Shown here: one piece after another, positions 3,492-58,178 of the stretch
Layout: each line of letters opens with the position of its first letter
How positions within the stretch are numbered: the stretch's first letter is position 1
Assembly: GCA_963666835.2 (NCBI GenBank)
Contig: CAXXGO010000006.1
Location: forward strand, 1,376,001 to 1,440,000
Reading direction: 5' to 3'
Source: Phycisphaerae bacterium
GTDB lineage: Bacteria; Planctomycetota; Phycisphaerae; UBA1845
DNA: 64,000 bases
Translations under genes and position numbers: made by a program
Notes under the pieces: model-generated
Databases searched by the model: none
What the model saw: the letters and a program-made list of their open reading frames with translations, nothing else
Told to the model about the DNA's origin: nothing

Positions 3492-5312
3492 CTATTCGCA
3501 ATCGCAGGGGGCGCAGAACGGGTAGGGGCTGCCTTCGAACGCCCTCACCATTATCAGGATGTCCGCCATGTTTACCCACTCCATCAGATAGTAGATGCTG
3601 CACCAGGTTACCGGGGGGCGGTTGTCGTGCCATTGGAACGTTTGCATGGCGGCCATAAGGTCGTTCATATTCACGACCCCGTCCGGGACCTGCCAAACGC
3701 CGTCGAAGCCGCCGACGCAATCGCACCAGTACTTCGGATAGGGACTCGGGGTGGTGTCGATCGAAAGCGGATCCGATCGGCTGATAGGCTCCGTGGGGAC
3801 GACCGCCCTTATCCGGTAGCTCGCGGCCGGGACGATTCGGCAATCACCGACGCGCGCTATCGGCTCGGGCCAGAAGCGATAGATCGGCTCCGGGACTACT
3901 CTCGAGATCAAAGAGTTTTCGGGATCCGGAATGTCAACGTAACCCACCACGCCCGTGCAATCGGGGAAGAAGCTGCTATCCACCAGCTCCACCTGATACG
4001 CTACCGCGATATCGAGATCGCCGGGGACGAAAGAGATGAAACGGTTCTTGACCACATCATCCGGCCAGGCGGGCATGGTCGGCGGGGCAAGCTGACACTC
4101 GTCCGGTACCCCATCGGCGTCGCTGTCCGGGGAGCTTTCATCGGTCACGTCACAGCCGTCGAGAACGGTGTTTTGGTTACAGTCGTCGCACCACGGACTG
4201 CCGTCGCAATCGGCCAGATCGGTTTCGTCGGGGATGCCGTTGTGGTTGCAGTCCACCATTTCGCATTCGTCGGGAATGCCGGTTTCGTTGACATCCCACG
4301 AGGTTCCTTCGGCGATATCGCACTCGTCGGGAATGCCGTTAGGCTGGCAGTCAACGCTCGTAGCCTCAGCAATGTCGCAACTATCGGCCACGCCGTTTTC
4401 GTTGCAGTCCGGCTCGCACTCGTCGGGGATGCCGTTTCCGGTGCAATCCTCACTGGTGCCCGCGGCGATATCGCAATCGTCGGGGACGCCGTTGTCATTA
4501 CAGTCGGGTTCTTCGGGGCATTCGTCGGGAACGCCGTTGCCGTTGCAGTCTGCGCTGGTTCCATCGGCAATATCGCATTCGTCCGGAATGCCGTTGCCGT
4601 TGCAGTCTGCGCTGTCGCCTGCGGCGAGGTCACAGAAATCCCAGACCCCGTTCGCATTGCAGTCAGGGCGGTCTTCGGTTTGGCAGACGGCTCCGACGGT
4701 GATGTACTCTACGCTGAAGGTCCCGTCCAAATAGGGGCCGTTGGTGGCGTCTCCGAACGCGATCGTACTGTTGGTGCCGTAACTTGGGTATTCCAGCGCC
4801 AATGCGCCGTCGACGAACATAAAGGCCCGGTTGTTCGCCAGGACTTCCAGGCGATAGTCGTGAAAGGCGTCCGTCGTATCCATGGCCGTTGAATCGCTCA
4901 GGTCGCCCCAGCCGATTTCGTCCTCGTCGAAGTACAGAAGCTGTCCGCGATACGGCGCGCCCCACGGAGAGGTGAAACCGCCGAAGAACCCGATCGGGGC
5001 GTCATAGGCGTTGTGCGGGTCCGCAACGGCAATGACCCTCAGCCGAATCTCGATTGCGTAGCCGGCGGCCGGGTCGATGCCCACGTCGCGATAGAAGGTC
5101 ATCATCGGCTGACTGAGCGACGGCATTCCGATGGTGTTGAGGGTTAGCGCGGTTCCGTCCGTGGATACATCCAGCGGTCCGACGATCGTCGTGTGGTAAT
5201 CCCACCCTTGGTCCTGGGGCAAGGTCCCGCCGTCCAGGACGACGACATCCGCAAACGTCGCGGTCGCGACCATAAACACGGCCAAACTCGAAACTGCGAT
5301 AAGGCGAATCAT
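3492..5312 (-). CDS. Secreted protein with tandem Cys-rich DCNxNGxPDxCD repeats and divergent dockerin-like C-terminus
   Basis: Signal peptide MIRLIAVSSLAVFMVATATFA; GGAGG RBS upstream of ATG 5312; about ten DCNxNG-type repeats; C-terminal PDGVVNMNDL...VNMADIL pair. Confidence 0.75.
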   Translation of the reverse strand: MIRLIAVSSLAVFMVATATFADVVVLDGGTLPQDQGWDYHTTIVGPLDVSTDGTALTLNTIGMPSLSQPMMTFYRDVGIDPAAGYAIEIRLRVIAVADPHNAYDAPIGFFGGFTSPWGAPYRGQLLYFDEDEIGWGDLSDSTAMDTTDAFHDYRLEVLANNRAFMFVDGALALEYPSYGTNSTIAFGDATNGPYLDGTFSVEYITVGAVCQTEDRPDCNANGVWDFCDLAAGDSADCNGNGIPDECDIADGTSADCNGNGVPDECPEEPDCNDNGVPDDCDIAAGTSEDCTGNGIPDECEPDCNENGVADSCDIAEATSVDCQPNGIPDECDIAEGTSWDVNETGIPDECEMVDCNHNGIPDETDLADCDGSPWCDDCNQNTVLDGCDVTDESSPDSDADGVPDECQLAPPTMPAWPDDVVKNRFISFVPGDLDIAVAYQVELVDSSFFPDCTGVVGYVDIPDPENSLISRVVPEPIYRFWPEPIARVGDCRIVPAASYRIRAVVPTEPISRSDPLSIDTTPSPYPKYWCDCVGGFDGVWQVPDGVVNMNDLMAAMQTFQWHDNRPPVTWCSIYYLMEWVNMADILIMVRAFEGSPYPFCAPCDCE

Positions 5313-6204: not shown

Positions 6205-8229
6205 ATGAAGATGATCTACGACAAGTGCGGTATTGTCATGTTGGGACTGATGGTCGTCACGATTGAGGGTGCTTTCGCTGCCTCGGCCGAGGAGGTTCCA
6301 TGCGCTTCGTGCCCGGCGATTTCGACGGCGAGTGACACTATCGACAGGGACATCTCTCTGAACGAGTGCGTTAGCAATGAGAGGCCGCGCGATGGCCTTA
6401 TCGCCGATTCTGGTTCCGGCAATCGAAGCGATGAGGTGCTTAGTCTATGGCGATATGTCGATGACGATGCCGCGCCAGGGGGCGACGGACTCACCTGGGG
6501 AACTGCCTTTACGCACTTGCAGGACGCCCTTGCCGCCACGGGTGGGTCGATTAGGGTGGCCGAAGGAGTTTACCGACCCGACCGTGATGAAGCCGGCAAC
6601 GTGACCCCCGGCGATCGGATGGCCACGTTCCTGCTGGCTGATGACGTTGTCGTGGAGGGCGGCTACCGCGGCTGCCCCGGCGGCGATTGCGCCGGCGGCG
6701 ATCCCGACGAAAGAAACACTGCTTTGTACGCGACGATTCTCAGCGGGGATTTGGCCGGGGGTGACGCGGACGTGTTTTCGCCTGGTGATCTGTTGGATGA
6801 GCCGACGCGGGCGGAAAACTGCTATCATGTTGTCACTACCGCCGGCAAGAGCGTGCTTGACGGCGTTACGATCGTCGGCGGCAACGCCAACGAGCCGCAC
6901 CACGATGAGGGGGGCGGGATCTTCAACGGCTCTTGCGGTGCCCCTACGATCCTCGGCTGTACAATCACGCGGAACTCGGCCGCGTCCTCCGGCGGGGGGA
7001 TGCACAATTACCACGGGAACGCCACCTTGGAGGATTGCGTCTTCTCCGACAACTCGTCCGGCAACACCGGCGGCGGGATGCGCAATTGCGGCTATGCCCA
7101 CCCGACGCTCACGGACTGCCGGTTCCTCGGTAATATGGCTGTTGAAGGCGGAGGGATGAGCAACGATGACTGCGCGAGCCCGACCATAGAGGATTGTGTC
7201 TTCTCGGATAATTCGGCGACGCGCACCGGTGGTGCAATGGACAGCCGCGGCCTCAGTCAGCCTACGCTTTCGGGCTGTACGATTCTGCGGAACGGAGCCG
7301 GCACAACCGGGGGCGGGCTGTATAACTGGGATAGCGACCCGATCTTGACGAACTGCGTTTTCTCAGGGAATTCAGCGGGGCACGGTGGGGGGATGGACAA
7401 CTTCAGCAGTCACCCGCGGGTGAGCTTCTGCACGTTTTCGGGGAACATCGCCCGCCAATGGGGCGGCGCTCTGTGCCTGCGCAATGGCAGCGTCGCAACC
7501 CTACGCAGCTCCATTCTCTGGGGAGATCTACCCGATGAGATCTCCATGGGCTCCTTGGCCGGCACGAGCGCCAAGTGTATCAACGTCCAGGGCGGCTGGC
7601 CGGGGGAGGGTAACATCGGCGAATTGCCCCGGCATGATCCGCTTTTTGTTGCAGCCGGCTATTGGGATGACAACGGCACTCCGGGGGACGAGACTGATGA
7701 TTCCTGGGTGGAAGGAGATTATCATTTGCGGCCCGGCTCGCCGTGCATCGACTCCGGGACTCTTGCGGGGGTACCGGCCACGACGACAGCCGACTTCGAG
7801 GGCAACGATCGCGTTCAGCACTGCCGACCCGACATGGGAGCCGATGAAACCGCCTATTTCCGGGACTGCAACGATAATGGCGTGGGTGACGCTTGCGATC
7901 TTGAGGACGAAACCAGCTTCGACTGCAATGGCAACGGCGTTCCCGATGAGTGCGACCTCGAAGACGCGACGAGTCTCGACTGCAATGATAATGGCACTCC
8001 CGACGAGTGCGAGACGATTGACGGCGGCGACTTCGACGTCGACTACGACGTGGCTTTGACCGACTACAAAGCTTTCGCCGGATGCCTGGGCGGTCCGAGC
8101 GAGACGCCCACCGCGGACGCGGCCGAGTGCATAGGCGCCTGCCGGGCGGCGTTCGACTTTGACGTCGATCGCGATGTGGACTTAGCCGACCTCGCGGAGT
8201 TTATGATCGTGGTAACCGACGTACGGTAA
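6205..8229 (+). CDS. Secreted right-handed parallel beta-helix (pectin-lyase-like) protein with DCNxNG repeats and dockerin-like tail
   Basis: Signal peptide; YVDDDA..GGDG.TW.TAF..LQDAL motif; repeated N.A..GGGM.N....PT...C.F..N; DYHL..GSPCIDSG; tail GDFDVDYDVALTDY...FDFDVDRDVDLADLAEF. Confidence 0.8.
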   Translation: MKMIYDKCGIVMLGLMVVTIEGAFAASAEEVPCASCPAISTASDTIDRDISLNECVSNERPRDGLIADSGSGNRSDEVLSLWRYVDDDAAPGGDGLTWGTAFTHLQDALAATGGSIRVAEGVYRPDRDEAGNVTPGDRMATFLLADDVVVEGGYRGCPGGDCAGGDPDERNTALYATILSGDLAGGDADVFSPGDLLDEPTRAENCYHVVTTAGKSVLDGVTIVGGNANEPHHDEGGGIFNGSCGAPTILGCTITRNSAASSGGGMHNYHGNATLEDCVFSDNSSGNTGGGMRNCGYAHPTLTDCRFLGNMAVEGGGMSNDDCASPTIEDCVFSDNSATRTGGAMDSRGLSQPTLSGCTILRNGAGTTGGGLYNWDSDPILTNCVFSGNSAGHGGGMDNFSSHPRVSFCTFSGNIARQWGGALCLRNGSVATLRSSILWGDLPDEISMGSLAGTSAKCINVQGGWPGEGNIGELPRHDPLFVAAGYWDDNGTPGDETDDSWVEGDYHLRPGSPCIDSGTLAGVPATTTADFEGNDRVQHCRPDMGADETAYFRDCNDNGVGDACDLEDETSFDCNGNGVPDECDLEDATSLDCNDNGTPDECETIDGGDFDVDYDVALTDYKAFAGCLGGPSETPTADAAECIGACRAAFDFDVDRDVDLADLAEFMIVVTDVR

Positions 8230-44888: not shown

Positions 44889-45348
44889 AACGGAACTCTG
44901 TCGAGGAACTGTCAGGGTGTTGACGGCCACTGCCCGTAAGTCTCTCTCCGGCACAACGTCAGCCCCGCCGAACTTGCCCCGGATATCGTTCATGGTTTGG
45001 TCGAATCGAGGGTCGGTTCCTGAAATACCGGATCTAAATAGGTGACTGTCCCGTGTTTTGTCGGGTTTTGTCCCGTCCCGGGTTTTGCCCCGGTTTTGCC
45101 ATAAATAGGTGACTGTCCCCGGTTTTCTCCGGTTTTCTACATGCGTGAGTGAAACGAAACTCTGTCGAGGAACTGTCAGGGTGTTGACGGCCACTGCCCG
45201 TAAGTCTCTCTCCGGCACAACGTCAGCCCCGCCGAACTTGCCCCGGATATCGTTCATGGTTTGGTCGAATCGAGGGTCGGTTCCTGAAATACCGGATCTA
45301 AATAGGTGACTGTCCCGGGTTTTGCCCCGGGTCTTGCCGGGTTTTGTA
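44873..45348. repeat. 180-bp direct repeat ending at the transposase end motif, with micro-repeat linkers
   Basis: 44873-45052 vs 45137-45316 with one mismatch; AAATAGGTGACTGTCCC at 45036, 45103 and 45300. Confidence 0.92.
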
Positions 45349-51582: not shown

Positions 51583-52953
51583 ATGATCAAATTCGGACCC
51601 GGCAACCTGCGGATCCCCCGGTTTGAGAAGCCGGTCTATCTGGTCGCAGGGGGTCTTACCGACTTCAGGAAGAAGTACCCGGAGAAGAACACTTCCGAGC
51701 TTTGCACGGAAGCTCTCCGGATGGCGGTCGAGGAGAATGACCTGAAGGTCTCCGCGGAGGAGTTTCGCCGCAAAGTGAACTGGTGCGTGTATTCCCAGTT
51801 CGCGGACCACTTCGGGGATCAGCTTCTGGCCGCCTCTAAGATCCATGACTATCTAGGATTCGACCCACTCGGCAACATCGAGGTCAAAACCGGCGGCGCG
51901 ACCGGCGGTTCTTCCGTGCTGGCGGCCGCGCAAGCGGTGGCCTCGGGCTACGCGGACTGCGTACCGGTCGTCGGCTGGGAGCGCATGGACGATGTCAGCA
52001 CGAAGGTCGGTAACTCGTACATCGCGAGTGCCGCGTGCAAGGATTTCGAGTCTGAGCTGGGCTGGATGTACGCGGCGTATTACGCGTTGATGGCTCAGCG
52101 GTATCAGTACGAGAACCAGGTGCCGCACGAGACGCTCGCCAAGATCGCCTGCAAGAACCGAGAGTACGCCGTGTATTCACCCTTCTCGCAGAGCCCGGGC
52201 AAGTACACCGTAGAAGACGTGTTGAAGAACGAGGTTGTGTCCGACCCGCTCACGTTCCTCGAGTGCTGCGTGATGAGTGTCGGATCAGCGGTTCTGATCC
52301 TCGCGGACGAGAAGACCGCATATGAGCTGACCGATACCCCGATTCGGCTTAAGGCGATCTGCGGTGGCTCGCACACATTGCGGACGGCCGACCGGCGAAA
52401 CATGCCGATCCTTCTGCTGCCCAATGAGACGGAAGAGACCTACAAGAACTACTTCAACGAGCGCTGCACTGAATGGCCGGGCTTCAGTTCGTTCTTGGCC
52501 GCCCGCATGGCGGCTTACCTGGCGTACAACATGGCCGGGATCAAGGACCCGGTAGAGGATTTCGACCTGCTGGAGACGCACGACGCGTTCACGATTAGTG
52601 ACATTCAGACATACGAGGATATCGGGCTGCGTCCTTACGGTCGCGGTCGCGAGTTCATTGAGTCGGGTGACGCGTACTTCGAGGGCAGGCTCCCGACCAA
52701 CCTATCGGGCGGTCTGATCGGCTCCATGCACGCGGTGGGTGCCACCGGGATTTTCCAGATCATCGAGGTGCTCTGGCAACTGCAGGGCAAGTGGGACAAG
52801 TTCCACGCAGACCCGGAGATGTGGACCCGGTTCGGCAAGAAGAAGCCCGCCGAGTTCCGCAGTTTGCAGGTGAAAGGCCCGAAGCGCGGCTGTGCAATCA
52901 GCCATGCCGGAACCGGTAGTCACGTAACGTGCTCGATTCTGGAGAAACCGTAG
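51583..52953 (+). CDS. Thiolase-family protein (archaeal/SCP-x-like type)
   Basis: GGGAG RBS; G.E.M, KN..YA, ETHDAFT, NLSGGLIGSMHAVGATG; paired with DUF35 gene. Confidence 0.9.
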   Translation: MIKFGPGNLRIPRFEKPVYLVAGGLTDFRKKYPEKNTSELCTEALRMAVEENDLKVSAEEFRRKVNWCVYSQFADHFGDQLLAASKIHDYLGFDPLGNIEVKTGGATGGSSVLAAAQAVASGYADCVPVVGWERMDDVSTKVGNSYIASAACKDFESELGWMYAAYYALMAQRYQYENQVPHETLAKIACKNREYAVYSPFSQSPGKYTVEDVLKNEVVSDPLTFLECCVMSVGSAVLILADEKTAYELTDTPIRLKAICGGSHTLRTADRRNMPILLLPNETEETYKNYFNERCTEWPGFSSFLAARMAAYLAYNMAGIKDPVEDFDLLETHDAFTISDIQTYEDIGLRPYGRGREFIESGDAYFEGRLPTNLSGGLIGSMHAVGATGIFQIIEVLWQLQGKWDKFHADPEMWTRFGKKKPAEFRSLQVKGPKRGCAISHAGTGSHVTCSILEKP

Positions 52954-53082
52954 GAACGGAATTCCGGACGCCCGACGGCGGGCAGGCCGGACGTCGGTCC
53001 GGCTGACACTTCGGTGTCATTCACAAGTGGAGTTTTCGCCGTCTGTCGTTCATGATTCGCTATTCATCGAGAGGTCAATACT

Positions 53083-53556
53083 ATGGCAATTGAATGGCCC
53101 ACCACAGCATGCGAAGTGCTGAACGATGATCCGTTGATCATCAAGAATGCCAAGACGTGGCATCACTCCCACAGCTACGGCGGCTGGGGGAAGTTCTTCA
53201 AGGGGCTGCGCGAGAAGAAGCTTTTCGCCACGCGCTGCACCAATCCTGAGTGTGAGGAAAACCGGCTGTGGCTGCCGCCCCGTTGCGAATGTGTCGATTG
53301 CTGGCACAAGACCGAATGGGTCGAAGCTCCCCAGCAGGGGCGGATATACACCTTCTCCACGGTGACGTACCCGGGCGAGCTATTCAAGCTCCCGGCCGGC
53401 ACGCCGCTGATCAGCATCGAGATCGAAGGGGTCTGCACCAAGCTGATGAGTTGGTTGAAGGAAGGCAAGCCCGAATTCGGAATGCCGGTGAAGGCCGTGT
53501 TCAACACTGCTAATCCGACGAACACGATCCTGGACCTGGCTTGGGTGCCGGCTTAA
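53083..53556 (+). CDS. Zn-ribbon/OB-fold protein (DUF35/ChsH2-like), thiolase partner
   Basis: FFKGLREKKL.ATRC...C......PPR..C..C, G.IYTFS, GMPVKAVF. Confidence 0.9.
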   Translation: MAIEWPTTACEVLNDDPLIIKNAKTWHHSHSYGGWGKFFKGLREKKLFATRCTNPECEENRLWLPPRCECVDCWHKTEWVEAPQQGRIYTFSTVTYPGELFKLPAGTPLISIEIEGVCTKLMSWLKEGKPEFGMPVKAVFNTANPTNTILDLAWVPA

Positions 53557-53593
53557 CGTCACCCTAAACGAATTGTGACGCAGGTAGCAGTTG

Positions 53594-53631
53594 ACGCCGC
53601 CCGGCAAGGGACCCTTGCCGGGCGGTGTTTT
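53594..53631 (+). terminator. Intrinsic terminator after thiolase-DUF35 operon
   Basis: Long GC stem ACGCCGCCCGGCAAGG / CCTTGCCGGGCGGTGT followed by T-rich run; between convergent genes. Confidence 0.75.
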
Positions 53632-53693: not shown

Positions 53694-54347
53694 TCAGAAT
53701 CGCTCGTTTCCGAATTCGGCACAGTACGGTTTTTGGCGTATCTGTGCGGACGTGCGGTTCAAAGCGTGAAGTACGTATCCTGGAAGCACGACCCTCCACG
53801 GGCCATCGCCACATAGGCCGAACTTGGGCAGCAATCTCGATTGTTGACCAGCCATCGGGTAGATGGCTGCGATGGTATGCCGGTCGACCTCAGGCAGTTC
53901 TGCCGCTTCGATCTTCAGCAACTCAATACTCACTTGGCGGTAACCGTCGAGGACAAACCCCACACAGCTATATCGGCGATACCTGCGCACCCGAGTGTTT
54001 GGATCCACCTCATCTTTCCAAGGCGGATCGACAACATATTGGCGCGTCCTTTCGGCTCCAGCAGTGTGATACTCGTCAGCGACCTCCGCGATCCATGCCG
54101 ATAGTTCCTTGATCTCATCACTGGTCAGCGGAACATGTCCTGCTACATGCACCTTCATTGCCTCTCCACGCCCGAGTGGCGGCCGCATGTGAACGGCGTA
54201 TACATCGTCCTCTGCTTCGGCAGAGCATCTATCTGCGTCGTGCAAACCAACGTGCGCTATCAGGCGACGTTCCTTGTCGGCATACATTCCGATTACATCG
54301 TACCTGGATAGGGTATGCGGCCCGCGGGCAAGATCAAGAATGGGCAT
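53694..54347 (-). CDS. Hypothetical protein, predicted permuted papain-like NlpC/P60 (YiiX/LRAT-type) cysteine enzyme
   Basis: GGAG RBS before ATG 54347; YDVI...HVGL...VH...QY...RYSCVGFVLDGY...I.L...VLPGY with His before Cys. Confidence 0.6.
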   Translation of the reverse strand: MPILDLARGPHTLSRYDVIGMYADKERRLIAHVGLHDADRCSAEAEDDVYAVHMRPPLGRGEAMKVHVAGHVPLTSDEIKELSAWIAEVADEYHTAGAERTRQYVVDPPWKDEVDPNTRVRRYRRYSCVGFVLDGYRQVSIELLKIEAAELPEVDRHTIAAIYPMAGQQSRLLPKFGLCGDGPWRVVLPGYVLHALNRTSAQIRQKPYCAEFGNERF

Positions 54348-54370
54348 TTGGCACTCCGGAATGCATAGAC

Positions 54371-55432
54371 TCAATCCGCCCCAAGCACATCAATCGCGCG
54401 GTTAAGCAAGGCGCGAGGTGCATCCGGAACCACAGCAGTTCGATTTGCCCAGACCTCTCGCAGTTCACACAGCTTGCGACGCAGCCGCCGCACGAACCAC
54501 GCGGCGCCCAGATCCCGGGCAATACTCACTACACGGCATGTTTCGCTACTTGCCATCGCGGCCAGGGCGTAGATGGCAAGGTGCGCCATGGCGGCGCTCT
54601 GGCTTACTGTAATGGCGTACCGATTCAGTAGGGACTCCGCGATCTGGGCAACTTCCTCTGCAAGATCCGCGTGCCGGTCCACATCCATCGGGGGCTGCGC
54701 TTCAAAGATGCGACCAAGCATCTTGACGGTCACGAGACTCGTCTCGACGGAATGACCCGGTTGCAGTAACGGGTGCAGAGAGTCGGCATCATCCGGGGCT
54801 AACATCGAGGCACCCGTGCGAATCGCAGCCAACACGACTGCCTCGTCGTGAGGGTCAGTGCTATCACGATACCGTTTCGCAAAGTTCAAGAACCAGGGCG
54901 CGAGTCGGCTGCTATCGTTAACGGTGAAGCTTGTGTCCTCAGCGAGCAGGATCATCTTACGCAATCGAGGCAGGTCTGATTGGGCATCCGCCTGGAGGAT
55001 CTCCGCAGCAAGTACCGCCGGAGCCCATAACGAGATGTCATCCGCATTGGTTTCGCTGTCCCGACCATGCAAAGGCCTCTCAACTGCGGCGGACTCCGCC
55101 AACACCATACCGGCAGCGGTCCTCTCGTCCCAACAACTGCCACGGTTCGACCTCCCGCATTGCTGCATCAATGCTACTATATCCGAAAGGCTGAATGCTC
55201 GGCTCGCCCCGTAAGATGGCGCGTCAATCCCGTCTGACTGGATGTCCCCGCCACGCTTCCGGATTCCACTTACTGCTCCCCACTCGCCTTCGACATGCAA
55301 TTGGTCTTGTGCAGGACTACAGAATCTATAGGGACCATACCCGTACTGCCAATCTGGCCCATCTGAAACCCGACGGCCTTCTAGTTCCGTTGATGGTGTT
55401 TGTCCCTTTTGACCTTCGATTGCATCAGACAT
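54371..55432 (-). CDS. Hypothetical protein, low-complexity N-terminus and alpha-helical C-terminal domain
   Basis: 353-aa ORF overlapping upstream stop (ATGTCTGA); Leu/Ala-rich amphipathic helices. Confidence 0.65.
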   Translation of the reverse strand: MSDAIEGQKGQTPSTELEGRRVSDGPDWQYGYGPYRFCSPAQDQLHVEGEWGAVSGIRKRGGDIQSDGIDAPSYGASRAFSLSDIVALMQQCGRSNRGSCWDERTAAGMVLAESAAVERPLHGRDSETNADDISLWAPAVLAAEILQADAQSDLPRLRKMILLAEDTSFTVNDSSRLAPWFLNFAKRYRDSTDPHDEAVVLAAIRTGASMLAPDDADSLHPLLQPGHSVETSLVTVKMLGRIFEAQPPMDVDRHADLAEEVAQIAESLLNRYAITVSQSAAMAHLAIYALAAMASSETCRVVSIARDLGAAWFVRRLRRKLCELREVWANRTAVVPDAPRALLNRAIDVLGAD

Positions 55433-56150
55433 CGCTCGGTCCCTTCTGCATACCGCGAGTCAGCGGAAGATTGGGGACACGCCCAGGCAGCCAAGTCTCT
55501 ATGGATTGACCGAGAACGTCGAGTTTGCCTTTTGCCTTCTTGGCCTTCTCTGCAACTTCTACCACCTGCTCGTATGTCAGCTCTGCTTCGAAGGACTTTG
55601 GCAATCCGTCCTCACCAGTGGCGATGATATGCAGACGCGTGTACGGCATCATCCCCTCAAGCTTCTCTCGATTCCGATCGAAGATCGGTCTTAAGTCGCA
55701 GATCAACTCGACCGTCTCAAGTTGCTGCCCGGTCGTTTTCGCCAGACGCTCGGCCTTGCGATAACGAACCAGAGCAGGGTAGGGTTGGATCAATTCACCC
55801 AAAGCTTGCGTCAACCGGGTGAGTGTGTCCTCGTCGCAGGGCGGATGCTCCTCGTCAATGGCCTGCTTCAAGTCTCCGATGATACGCTCCACGTCTGAAG
55901 GCATAAGGTTTCGGATTGCTCTTCCCACCGCGTCCGCCGACTTACGGTCTTGGATGACCTCGTGGATCGATGTGAGCAGACTTCTGAGATCTAGAAACCT
56001 ATCGGCTTTGGCCAAATGCTTCCGAATCCCTTGGATCTCTTCGTCCGATAAGCTAGCGATGGTCTTTAGGTCGTCCACCATGCCCGGGATGGAGCTTGGG
56101 CGCTCAAGGAACGGCGAGTAACCTCGGATGAACATGACTGGCTCTGGCAT
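55425..56150 (-). CDS. Hypothetical protein, COMMD-like architecture (helical N-domain + COMM-like C-domain)
   Basis: GGGGA upstream of ATG; helical first ~140 aa, then LETVELICDLRPIF / YTRLHII / SFEAEL strands and final helix TYEQVVEVAEKAKKAKGKLDVL. Confidence 0.6.
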   Translation of the reverse strand: MPEPVMFIRGYSPFLERPSSIPGMVDDLKTIASLSDEEIQGIRKHLAKADRFLDLRSLLTSIHEVIQDRKSADAVGRAIRNLMPSDVERIIGDLKQAIDEEHPPCDEDTLTRLTQALGELIQPYPALVRYRKAERLAKTTGQQLETVELICDLRPIFDRNREKLEGMMPYTRLHIIATGEDGLPKSFEAELTYEQVVEVAEKAKKAKGKLDVLGQSIETWLPGRVPNLPLTRGMQKGPSDV

Positions 56151-56457
56151 GATCTTCTATCCCCGGTTTTCGCCCTCGAAGCGGGCTCTTACCTTGTGTC
56201 CGATTGTGCAACGCTGTGAAATCTAAGTAATTCCGCCACATCACTCCGCCGAATACTAGGCCGCGTCGGACTTTTGGCAACCCCTCTGAATCATCCGACA
56301 GCGACGGTGTACATCGCAACAACAAACGACACAGATAGACGCCTGGGTCTGCGATCACCAAGAGGACCGCGGGAGCGTTGGCAGAAGCGAAGGCAACCGC
56401 ATTGCGCAACGGGCGTCTGATTTAGCTGATAGGCGTCGCGGCGTTCTCCTTTCTCGC

Positions 56458-57276
56458 CTACTTACCGCCGGCGCACATGGGGCGGAGGGCTTCGAACAGG
56501 CGGCGGCTTTCGCGGCAGGCGCAGTCGCACGGGTCACACACGAAGAACGCTCTATCGCCCCGGCCGCGGGTACGCCGAAGAAGCCGGCCGATCCTCCGTA
56601 CGCACTCTTCGGTTTCATCGGTGGCTTGGCTTGCGGCGGTGTTCACGATTACGACGTCGCTTTCGAGTAGTCCGTGGTACGGTTGTTGGAGCTGGACGCG
56701 TGTCGCCAGCTCGTCACCGAGCGGAGAACAGAGGAACGCCTTCATTTGCGATCGGGTGAGCATGTCACGCTGCTCGGGAGGTTGCGGCTCGTCCATCGTC
56801 GTGCCGGCGTCGAGCCCGAACATCTCCGAAGCGAACGCATGCGTGTCGTCCAGAATCCGCTCAAACTCGGTCGCCGCACGCACCGGGTCCCGGAACACGA
56901 CATCCAGTCTCGTCGGGGTCGGCATGACGAAGACCCGGTAGTCGTAGGGGTAGGCGTAGCGTAGGGCCGCGTCGGCGTCCGCCTCTACGGCCACAGACCC
57001 GAAACGGTCGACGCGATGTATGGCGGTCAGCGCGTCCGGCAGGACTTCGAAGACGTGATCCGCGTCGTAGTCGATCCACCGAGCGCTGGCGATACCCCAC
57101 TTTCGCGGAGAGCTGGCCCCCTTGGTCGGCGGGAATTTGTCGCCCCCTTTTCTGACCAGGCGGATGTAGTGTGGACGATGCGCCCACAGCCGATCGACCA
57201 TTGTCCGGATGACGGCGCTCTTTCCCGAGCGTCTAGGACCACTGACAAACGTTACACCCAAACCCATATTCGCCAC
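56458..57276 (-). CDS. Hypothetical P-loop NTPase-like protein
   Basis: N-terminal VTFVSGPRRSGKS Walker A-like motif; later VAVEAD and SDVVIVN strands. Confidence 0.6.
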   Translation of the reverse strand: MANMGLGVTFVSGPRRSGKSAVIRTMVDRLWAHRPHYIRLVRKGGDKFPPTKGASSPRKWGIASARWIDYDADHVFEVLPDALTAIHRVDRFGSVAVEADADAALRYAYPYDYRVFVMPTPTRLDVVFRDPVRAATEFERILDDTHAFASEMFGLDAGTTMDEPQPPEQRDMLTRSQMKAFLCSPLGDELATRVQLQQPYHGLLESDVVIVNTAASQATDETEECVRRIGRLLRRTRGRGDRAFFVCDPCDCACRESRRLFEALRPMCAGGK

Positions 57277-57557: not shown

Positions 57558-58178
57558 TCATGAGCCGGACGCTGCGAATCCTGCGGGCTGGTCTGCTTCC
57601 GACTTTGCTCGCCGCAGGGCGAGGATCAACTCGACCTCGCCGGTGGTGCGTTCGGCCTCGCGAGCGATATCCGCAATCGGCAATCCGCCGTCTGCCAGGC
57701 GATAGACGAGGGCATGTCGCTCGTCCGGCACCTCTTCCGTCGGGGGCGAGGCTGCTCCGTCGTCCTCGCTTACGGTTACGTCCAGCGCATCTCCGGTGCC
57801 GACGGTCCGAGCCAGGCGAGAGAGCTTCTCGATCCGCTCGTCGGCGTCCCGGATCACCGTCTCCAACTTGGCGAACCGCGTGTCGATTCGCCCATGAATC
57901 TGCCGGGCGAGCTGGTCCAATTCCAACATCACCCGCTCGACATCATGTCTGACGGCGGACTCTCTTTGCAGGTCGGCATACATCTCGCGTGCGGAGGTCC
58001 GCGGAGCCGTTCGGCGGACGCGCAGCCGGCGATACGTGGAGATCATTAGTATAGTCAGCCCTCCGACGGCGAGAGCCAGCATGATGAGCTGGGAAGTGCT
58101 CACCGGATTCGCCCCGAAGGATGCCGCCAAACCGGCAGAGGCCGCGTTAGAACTGGTCAACGGTATCGTGACGTCCAT
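57558..58178 (-). CDS. Membrane-anchored coiled-coil protein with C-terminal HTH-like motif
   Basis: One TM helix, coiled coil, tail VYRLADGGLPIADIAREAERTTGEVELILAL. Confidence 0.7.
   Translation of the reverse strand: MDVTIPLTSSNAASAGLAASFGANPVSTSQLIMLALAVGGLTILMISTYRRLRVRRTAPRTSAREMYADLQRESAVRHDVERVMLELDQLARQIHGRIDTRFAKLETVIRDADERIEKLSRLARTVGTGDALDVTVSEDDGAASPPTEEVPDERHALVYRLADGGLPIADIAREAERTTGEVELILALRRAKSEADQPAGFAASGS

Follow-up and report, generated by a model that had tools for sequence, protein, structure and literature searches.

A three-gene cassette encoding a COMMD-like protein (g1), a partner protein (g2) and a predicted cysteine enzyme (g3) was characterized in a 64,000-nt stretch of contig CAXXGO010000006.1 from Phycisphaerae bacterium, hereafter the window, whose positions are used for all coordinates. 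The genes lie on the reverse strand in the order g1 (55425–56150, 241 aa, ATG start), g2 (54371–55432, 353 aa, ATG start) and g3 (53694–54347, 217 aa), and none of their products presented a Pfam, PADLOC or NCBIfam family above cut-off, a transmembrane segment (maximum 19-residue hydropathy of 1.32) or a signal peptide. The cassette is rare, accessory and horizontally moving, and it was tentatively interpreted, with a probability of about 0.4, as a mobile conflict-type module in which g3 would be a thiol effector, g2 would control it and the COMMD-like protein would provide a ring-shaped mount.

The linkage of the three genes was assessed in genomes and metagenomes. Word-indexed searches at E ≤ 1e-3 retrieved 157 homologs of g1 among 1021 candidates, 152 of g2 among 6419 and 103 of g3 among 503, and contigs of the same length recurred often among the three sets. 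When species-representative genomes were scanned with the g1 profile, 28 loci were obtained, 24 of them from several classes of Planctomycetota, one from Hydrogenedentota, one from Bacillota and two without assignment. By means of hidden Markov models of the three families, g1, g2 and g3 were found adjacent and collinear in 22 of these 28 loci; two others were cut by the contig end (L008, where the start of g2 was present, and L024), and in the last four (L012, L021, L023 and L027) the g1 homolog was followed by other genes. The conservation of this order across phyla, a point raised in an earlier note on this DNA, was therefore observed, since it was kept among classes of Planctomycetota and in a Hydrogenedentota metagenome-assembled genome (MAG). 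In metagenome contigs, the g3 profile recovered 80 loci, 45 of which had at least 1900 nt upstream of g3 and were counted: both g1 and g2 preceded g3 in 34 loci, g2 was found directly before g3 in 44, and the remaining locus carried g1 and an unrecognised 265-aa open reading frame (ORF) at the g2 position. Because g2 was present in 44 of the 45 loci and g1 in fewer, the g2-g3 pair is the invariable core of the cassette, and g1 is its usual but exchangeable third part. Among the ten loci with g2 and no detectable g1, three (L067, L089 and L095) harbored an ORF of about 240 aa overlapping g2 by 8 bp, which aligned collinearly with the g1 profile over the COMM region at an hhalign E of 0.023 and a probability of 2%; the PDB profile search with this ORF found nothing relevant. 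Moreover, the identity matrices of g1, g2 and g3 were correlated across 54 cassettes (r of 0.91–0.95), a level reached by none of 500 permutations. The complex prediction for g1, g3 and g2 returned scores of 0.87, 0.87 and 0.82, with 0.00 and 0.00 in the partner-replaced controls and 0.89 in the g1-replaced control, a pattern that argues neither in favour of binding nor against it.

Other arrangements were also found around members of these families. A second three-gene variant, composed of a g1-type gene, a gene of 276–285 aa and a gene of about 200 aa, was present in L027 (7917–10110) and L023 (1838–4078), and probably in L024 (5372–6118). The two downstream genes of this variant were alike in a MAG of Pirellulales and one of Bacillota, and those of L027 resembled neither g2 nor g3 and matched no family of Pfam or PADLOC. 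Mvh-type hydrogenase genes come before the second variant in L027 and L024. In another locus from the same order as the window (L012, 768–4124), a g1 homolog with 44% identity comes first, and after it lie the genes of a DUF5678 protein and of an aspartyl protease of the retropepsin-like type (PF13975/PF13650). A gene of the proteasome subunit family (PF00227, 1.9e-20) was placed right after g3 in a Tepidisphaeraceae MAG (L013, 7688–8401) and in no other locus.

The organization of the cassette in the window is that of closely coupled genes. The stop of g1 and the ATG of g2 have 8 bp in common on the reverse strand (55425–55432, ATGTCTGA), which implies translational coupling, and the ORF coordinates revealed an overlap of 8 or 11 bp at this junction in most related loci. 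A spacer of 23 nt (54348–54370, reverse strand) separates g2 from g3 and contains a GGAG Shine-Dalgarno-like motif before the g3 ATG. The g3 frame can also be read from a TTG at 54374 (53694–54374, 226 aa); its start was placed at the ATG at 54347, which is the one used by the homologs, whose proteins begin with MP. The GC content was 0.54–0.59 in the cassette versus 0.60–0.65 in its flanks, and the GC content at third codon positions (GC3) was 0.65, 0.60 and 0.57 for g1, g2 and g3, respectively, compared with an average of 0.72 (sd 0.065) across 37 further long ORFs of the window, a reference set that may include false ORFs. The earlier note had described three co-oriented ORFs with an 8-bp overlap and a 23-bp gap, richer in A/T-ending codons than their neighbours, and both the layout and the codon usage were recovered here.

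The g3 product is, as judged from its model, a circularly permuted NlpC/P60 thiol enzyme of the His-before-Cys type that would constitute a new sequence family. The model was confident, with a predicted local distance difference test (pLDDT) of 93.5 and a predicted template modelling score of 0.91, and it presented the papain-like core fold of NlpC/P60 enzymes. In an exhaustive comparison by VIA, which covered 48,161 chains, the permuted clan ranked first, the structural matches being YiiX (2if6, score 9.4, 148 aligned), BcPPNE (3kw0, 8.8), TseH (6v98, 7.4), MARTX RID (5xn7, 5.7), DeSI/PPPDE (2wp7, 5.4), PLAAT4 (7zot, 4.5) and Aichivirus 2A (7zv6, 3.9). Canonical NlpC/P60 members scored far below the permuted ones, and the first unrelated chain in a second comparison scored 2.9. 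The catalytic columns were analyzed in 102 homologs taken from the loci, considering in each case those with a residue in the column. Cys128 (codon 53964–53966, reverse strand) was found in 101 of 101 homologs and His32 (54252–54254, reverse strand) in 93 of 93, and the position of His53 (54189–54191, reverse strand) held His (85), Asp (8), Gln (2) or Glu (1), as would be expected of a polar third residue of the triad. In the model, the helix 128–137 starts with Cys128, His32 is placed on the strand 29–36 and position 53 on the adjacent strand 47–54. This succession of His, polar residue and Cys, with the Cys at a helix N-terminus, is the one that Xu et al. 2011 described for permuted enzymes, exemplified by His49, Glu64 and Cys154 of BcPPNE (PMC3142127, in the sections drawn on here). 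Two tyrosines were also nearly invariant, Tyr163 (97 of 100) and Tyr191 (98 of 100). The g3 profile found no PDB relative by sequence; as g3 lacks both such a relative and a Pfam-clan match, it was considered a new sequence family in this fold class, outside the YiiX family of Pfam.

The substrates of permuted enzymes have been discussed in two studies. In the sections of Xu et al. 2011 consulted (PMC3142127), a fatty acid was reported in the YiiX pocket, lipid-like substrates were argued for, and the permuted pocket was considered unsuited to peptides; a hydrophobic S1 pocket was argued even for PPPDE1. In the available part of a 2026 study (PMC12994826), the permuted toxin Tox-Act1 was a phospholipase, and TseH likewise showed phospholipase activity.

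The g1 product is a COMMD-like protein with an HN domain followed by a COMM domain. A profile built from 39 sequences found as its top PDB match the structure 9q6a ('COMMD-like protein MBK5214510', from Flavobacteriaceae), with an E of 7.5e-4 and 22.3 bits over residues 19–216 of 241, a weak but full-length match. In the AlphaFold2 model, six helices are followed by a linker helix, then by three long strands and a helix of 28 residues. The six HN-type helices (24–32, 36–47, 55–63, 69–81, 84–97 and 107–120, with a pLDDT of 74–92 in this part) aligned with the HN domain of 9q6a, as expected for prokaryotic COMMD-like proteins, and the C-terminal part displayed the three-stranded antiparallel sheet and extended helix of a COMM domain. 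With Foldseek, this model had 18 matches at E ≤ 1e-3, among them 9q6a (E of 2.4e-9) and chains of human COMMD proteins (about 1e-6). None of the 39 family members was hit by the Pfam COMM domain model at E ≤ 1. Both folds that the earlier note had suggested, a COMMD-like layout for g1 and a papain-like His-before-Cys site for g3, were thus borne out, the former by profile, model and Foldseek matches to 9q6a and the latter by a confident model, structural matches within the permuted clan and the invariant His32 and Cys128.

Conserved segments were also observed at both ends of g1, in tails modelled as disordered. After the COMM helix, almost all the g1-clade proteins (L001–L111) carry a short conserved tail containing prolines, which in the close group reads LPDLPLTR and in distant members follows the pattern hydrophobic-P-x-P...T. 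This tail was also present in homologs without g2 and g3 and is therefore not partner-specific. The N-terminus presents a conserved motif of the V-x-[YF]-[IM]-R-G type, in the form MPEPV.YIRG in the close group.

The g2 product is the most divergent of the three, with a mean pairwise identity of 0.32 versus 0.43 for both g1 and g3. At the N-terminus it carries short conserved motifs, which a variable linker separates from a C-terminal domain that is strongly conserved and spans about 225 residues (approximately 125–351), and an exhaustive profile search, in which the matches fell mainly on residues 125–351, revealed 559 representative clusters at E ≤ 1e-3, 406 of them at E ≤ 1e-10. The g2 profile had no match among solved structures at E ≤ 10, the single PADLOC hit (PDC-S70, E of 0.0062, 15 bits over 43 residues) was not significant, and the best ESM Atlas scores (0.85–0.88, DUF6553 and others) were below the level counted as more than a lead. 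In a distant homolog (P0410), the g2 C-terminal domain was fused to an N-terminal response-regulator receiver domain (PF00072, 1.9e-8).

The distribution of the cassette among relatives indicates an accessory element. It is present in a single copy in the 6.0-Mb genome, and the g1 profile found no match in 24 genomes of the same family and one match in 16 genomes of the same order, this being the locus of the L012 type without g2 and g3. In a sample of 401 genomes of the phylum, three matches were obtained, one of them from the genome of the window itself and the other two weak and partial. The flanks differ at each locus and consist mostly of housekeeping genes, as verified by the Pfam annotation of 108 flank ORFs, and the five proteins flanking the cassette in the window were not found in any of 109 other loci. 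No integrase family turned up among the related-locus flank ORFs annotated with Pfam, and neither direct or inverted flanking repeats nor a tRNA was found near the cassette in the window.

The defence context of these loci was evaluated with PADLOC models. In the genome loci, 3 of 101 flank ORFs from the 28 loci had matches at E ≤ 1e-10, namely a HigB-like toxin in L021 and two generic domains in L028, and the scan of 22 selected proteins revealed an AbiLi-like ATPase on the opposite strand in L012 (2e-64), PDC-M63A in L014 and, outside the genome loci, PtuB in L079. L012 and L021, both with defence-type neighbours, are loci without g2 and g3. The clearest case was the metagenome locus L079 (1–9122), whose g2-g3 pair is placed among PglX (3e-207), PtuA (5e-111), PtuB (1.5e-75) and an AbiL-like ATPase. 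In this locus, the C-terminal part of PglX is followed by PtuA, PtuB, a BrxC-N/PglX-C chimera, g2-g3, a second chimera and an AbiL/PDC-M38A-like ATPase. The two chimeric fragments (3992–4715 and 6777–7498) are direct repeats of about 720 bp with 83–94% identity that bracket g2-g3, which points to recombination within a BREX locus as a means of exchanging the cassette. A mad3-like ATPase was found nearby in L081. In addition, the only contig of the viral collection with a g3 homolog (L116, 1–4919) starts with the last part of a g2 homolog, after which comes g3, and a phage capsid gene (PF25209, 3.6e-46) lies about 2 kb from this pair, which may represent prophage cargo or a prophage border. The defence-island location that the earlier note proposed to check was seen for one g2-g3 variant, in the BREX/Septu island of L079, and did not hold for most loci, and the anti-phage or conflict role that it proposed is still a putative one.

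Direct support exists for the three genes and the way in which they are coupled and co-inherited, for both folds, for the conservation of the catalytic residues and for a cassette that is rare and variable in context, and this provides the basis of a possible mechanism. Horizontally moving and cytoplasmic, the module would consist of three proteins. The triad of g3 would be formed by His32, His53 (Asp, Glu or Gln in some homologs) and Cys128, and this enzyme, judging by the permuted enzymes already characterised, would most likely act on an ester or amide of the lipid type by hydrolysing or transferring its acyl group; the acyl chain of a phospholipid and an N-acylated or lipidated protein are examples. 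As its obligatory partner, produced from the same transcript, g2 would probably bind g3 to restrain, activate or target it, as gene order and co-inheritance suggest. The g1 protein, as is the case for bacterial COMMD-like proteins of solved structure, would probably assemble through its COMM domain into a ring of 8–10 subunits, which, again from gene order and co-inheritance, might serve as platform or sensor for the g2-g3 pair. The most likely use would be in conflict, following a defence, abortive infection or toxin-regulator logic, with an enzyme effector restrained until a trigger. In this scheme, we infer ring formation, the physical contacts between the three proteins, the substrate of the enzyme, its trigger and the conflict role itself. 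The strongest argument for the conflict reading is the combination of a rare, patchy and compositionally foreign cassette with variable context, a fast-evolving partner and exchangeable parts.

Several observations weigh against this reading. No model of PADLOC-DB 2.0 fits g1, g2 or g3 (0 families for g1 and g3), and no NTPase, nuclease or recognisable sensor domain was found in the three proteins. Most loci are placed outside defence islands, with mostly housekeeping neighbours: L014, with PDC-M63A, was the sole one with a candidate defence neighbour among the 22 complete genome cassettes, and L079 was the only clear island among 17 metagenome loci with long flanks (106 flank ORFs). Regarding mobility, tblastn searches with g1 and g3 matched no plasmid, a pattern scan found g1 and g2 on no viral contig, and a single viral contig has g3. 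At the level of the parts, the g1 model has moderate confidence (pLDDT 68.8), g1 is not strictly required, being undetectable in 10 of the 45 metagenome loci despite the presence of g2, and the correlation of the identity matrices would also be yielded by plain co-inheritance. As for g3, Foldseek alone gave it no match at E ≤ 1e-3, none of 39 family members matched any Pfam model of the NlpC/P60 clan at E ≤ 1, and the clan match is at the fold level only. Considering L079 and the weaker hints against the majority of loci outside islands, the conflict reading has real but minority support among the loci.

Other explanations were weighed against the same data. The cassette might encode an accessory complex unrelated to conflict, in which g3 would be a deacylase or acyltransferase for the remodelling or recycling of the cell's own membrane or lipoproteins, with g2 as adaptor and g1 as ring platform. 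Such a function would loosely echo the membrane-trafficking role of eukaryotic COMMDs and agrees with the action of permuted NlpC/P60 enzymes on lipids or acyl-amide links, as far as described in the sources consulted. It also agrees with the mostly housekeeping neighbours, the lack of matches to defence models, the concentration of the cassette in Planctomycetota (24 of the 28 genome loci) and the receiver domain of the g2 homolog P0410, suggestive of ordinary signal control. However, the absence of the cassette from all 24 genomes of the family, its scarcity in the phylum (3 of 401), its low GC3 and its shifting position fit poorly with a housekeeping role; moreover, no membrane anchor or signal peptide was found in the three proteins, and a g2-g3 variant lies inside the BREX/Septu island. 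We regard this explanation as rather doubtful. If its papain-like Cys/His chemistry, which suits a peptidase, is taken as the guide, g3 might instead be a deconjugating peptidase of the PPPDE/DeSI type that removes a ubiquitin-like or other peptide modifier on a COMMD scaffold. This is improbable, since no gene for a ubiquitin-like protein, E1 or E2 was present in or beside the cassette in the annotated loci, and a hydrophobic S1 pocket was argued even for PPPDE1 in the sections of Xu et al. cited above.

A peptidoglycan hydrolase similar to canonical NlpC/P60 enzymes, acting on the cell wall or its precursors, finds a precedent in TseH, which was initially proposed as an endopeptidase (PMC12994826, in the part available). 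Three features make it very improbable for g3: the protein has no signal peptide or transmembrane segment, its topology is permuted, with a pocket described as unsuited to peptides in the cited sections of Xu et al., and the canonical members are much poorer structural matches than the permuted ones. Finally, the lack of annotation could indicate that the adjacency is accidental or that the ORFs are not real genes. This was refuted, its chance being negligible, by the more than 100 homologs with conserved motifs obtained for each protein, the recurrence of the order in dozens of contigs amid unrelated flanks and the confident g3 model.

Part of what composes this cassette had already been reported. 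Prokaryotic COMMD-like proteins were published by Liu, Moody ... Collins, Healy (Nat Commun 2026; PMC13392464) with the structures 9q6a and 9q6c, and, in the part of this paper available, the solved bacterial proteins form COMM-mediated dimers that assemble into rings of 8–10 subunits. The gene contexts presented there were from Myxococcota, with genes resembling type VI secretion system (T6SS) genes, Chlamydia and Halobacteria; no COMMD-like complex was predicted, and the function of these proteins was called 'currently unclear' (PMC13392464, same part). The words operon, cysteine, peptidase and defence do not occur in the accessible main text of that paper (PMC13392464), and two NCBI accessions and the taxon words were absent from the portion of its supplement searched, whose list uses UniProt accessions and taxids. 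In comparison with 9q6a, g1 has the same HN-then-COMM layout, a similar length (241 versus 240 aa) and a full-length alignment, but an identity of just 14–19%, and it differs from the COMMD-like proteins described in prokaryotes in being tied to a cysteine enzyme and a partner protein. No named system of this composition had been recognised in the earlier note, which agrees with the negative results of PADLOC, Pfam and NCBIfam; the novelty applies to the cassette and not to prokaryotic COMMD-like proteins as such, already published in 2026 (PMC13392464). In the literature searched, which included the DefensePredictor paper and the available part of PMC13392464, no description was found of the conserved g1-g2-g3 linkage, the g2 family or the g3 sequence family. 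COMMD-like proteins and permuted NlpC/P60 enzymes were already known, and it is their conserved operonic linkage that was not found in print.

The resemblance of g3 to known enzymes is closest for the YiiX/YaeF-like permuted ones, with which, according to the consulted sections of PMC3142127, it shares the topology, the His and polar residue before the Cys, the Cys at a helix N-terminus, a size of about 200 aa and a cytoplasmic nature. On the other hand, the third triad residue of g3 is mostly His and not Glu, g3 has g2 as partner, and it does not belong to these families at the sequence level. The T6SS toxins TseH (6v98) and Tox-Act1, of the phospholipase type, also have a dedicated partner gene alongside and occur in conflict loci (PMC12994826, available part). 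These toxins are exported, their site of action being the periplasm of the target cell, and the Tox-Act1 immunity protein is membrane-associated (PMC12994826, same part), whereas the cassette has no T6SS, Rhs or PAAR genes in its annotated flanks and no secretion signal, its partner gene precedes the enzyme gene, and a COMMD-like gene is attached. As for the eukaryotic Commander ring with CCDC22/CCDC93 (8f2r, 8p0w), the likeness lies in the idea of a ring that binds extended regions of partners; in contrast, no homolog of other Commander subunits is present in the cassette, and a ring of g1 would be homomeric and not a heterodecamer. We know of no enzyme similar to g3 in Commander.

The boundaries of the cassette in the window were also analyzed. 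Upstream of g1, an intergenic region of 307 bp on the reverse strand (56151–56457) is the probable promoter region, and it contains a weak σ70-like match (56280–56253). The promoter and terminator scan returned nothing above shuffled sequences, with two promoter matches versus a mean expectation of 1.2. On the other side, a GC-rich hairpin with a 17-bp stem (53593–53629) lies between g3 and a convergent OB-fold gene, with a U-tract on the forward strand; its folding energy of –42.5 kcal/mol (z of –6.1) was not equalled by any of 200 shuffles, and the simple terminator scan did not call it. This hairpin fits the terminator of the convergent thiolase/OB-fold (PF01796) operon of the forward strand, and it may also be the end of the cassette transcript. 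The gene upstream of the cassette (56458–57276, 272 aa) encodes a P-loop-like protein with only weak AAA_16 and AAA_22 matches and is core to the lineage, being present in 23 of 25 relatives with 34–60% identity and in 15 of 15 genomes of the family. The cassette is thus located, as previously proposed, between the terminator of the thiolase operon and an unrelated housekeeping-like gene.

Beside the P-loop gene, itself uncharacterised, another uncharacterised core gene (57558–58178) encodes a protein of 206 aa whose matches to DUF2802 and SpiroCoCo-type models are weak. The thiolase-like gene adjoining the cassette (thiolase/OB-fold, 51583–53556) had homologs with 84–88% identity in just 8 of the 25 relatives, and, compared with the 34–60% identity of the P-loop gene in 23 of them, this suggests that the thiolase/OB-fold operon itself may have been recently transferred or unusually constrained. 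The relatives carry the P-loop homolog and the thiolase on separate contigs, and the genes beside the P-loop homolog in four relatives matched nothing in the window past position 45000. Consequently, as synteny was not kept among relatives, the empty insertion site could not be defined.

In the context of prokaryotic COMMD-like proteins, the cassette provides conserved and translationally coupled partners, including an enzyme with an identifiable active site, and with such a partner set the function of the prokaryotic COMMD ring becomes directly testable. It also adds two new protein families, g3 as the fourth or fifth permuted NlpC/P60 sequence family and g2 as a widespread domain found in 559 representative clusters. 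If the ring organises an effector, the finding would bear on the origin of the Commander scaffold. A broader proposal, which we consider speculative and unlikely, is that COMMD-like rings are the common scaffold or sensor of an unrecognised class of modular and mobile prokaryotic conflict systems with exchangeable effectors, the effector being here a permuted NlpC/P60 lipid or acyl hydrolase with its g2 regulator and, elsewhere, others such as proteases. If true, this would be the first function for prokaryotic COMMD-like proteins, and the COMMD ring of the eukaryotic Commander would derive from a bacterial conflict or immune scaffold, as did several other parts of eukaryotic innate immunity.

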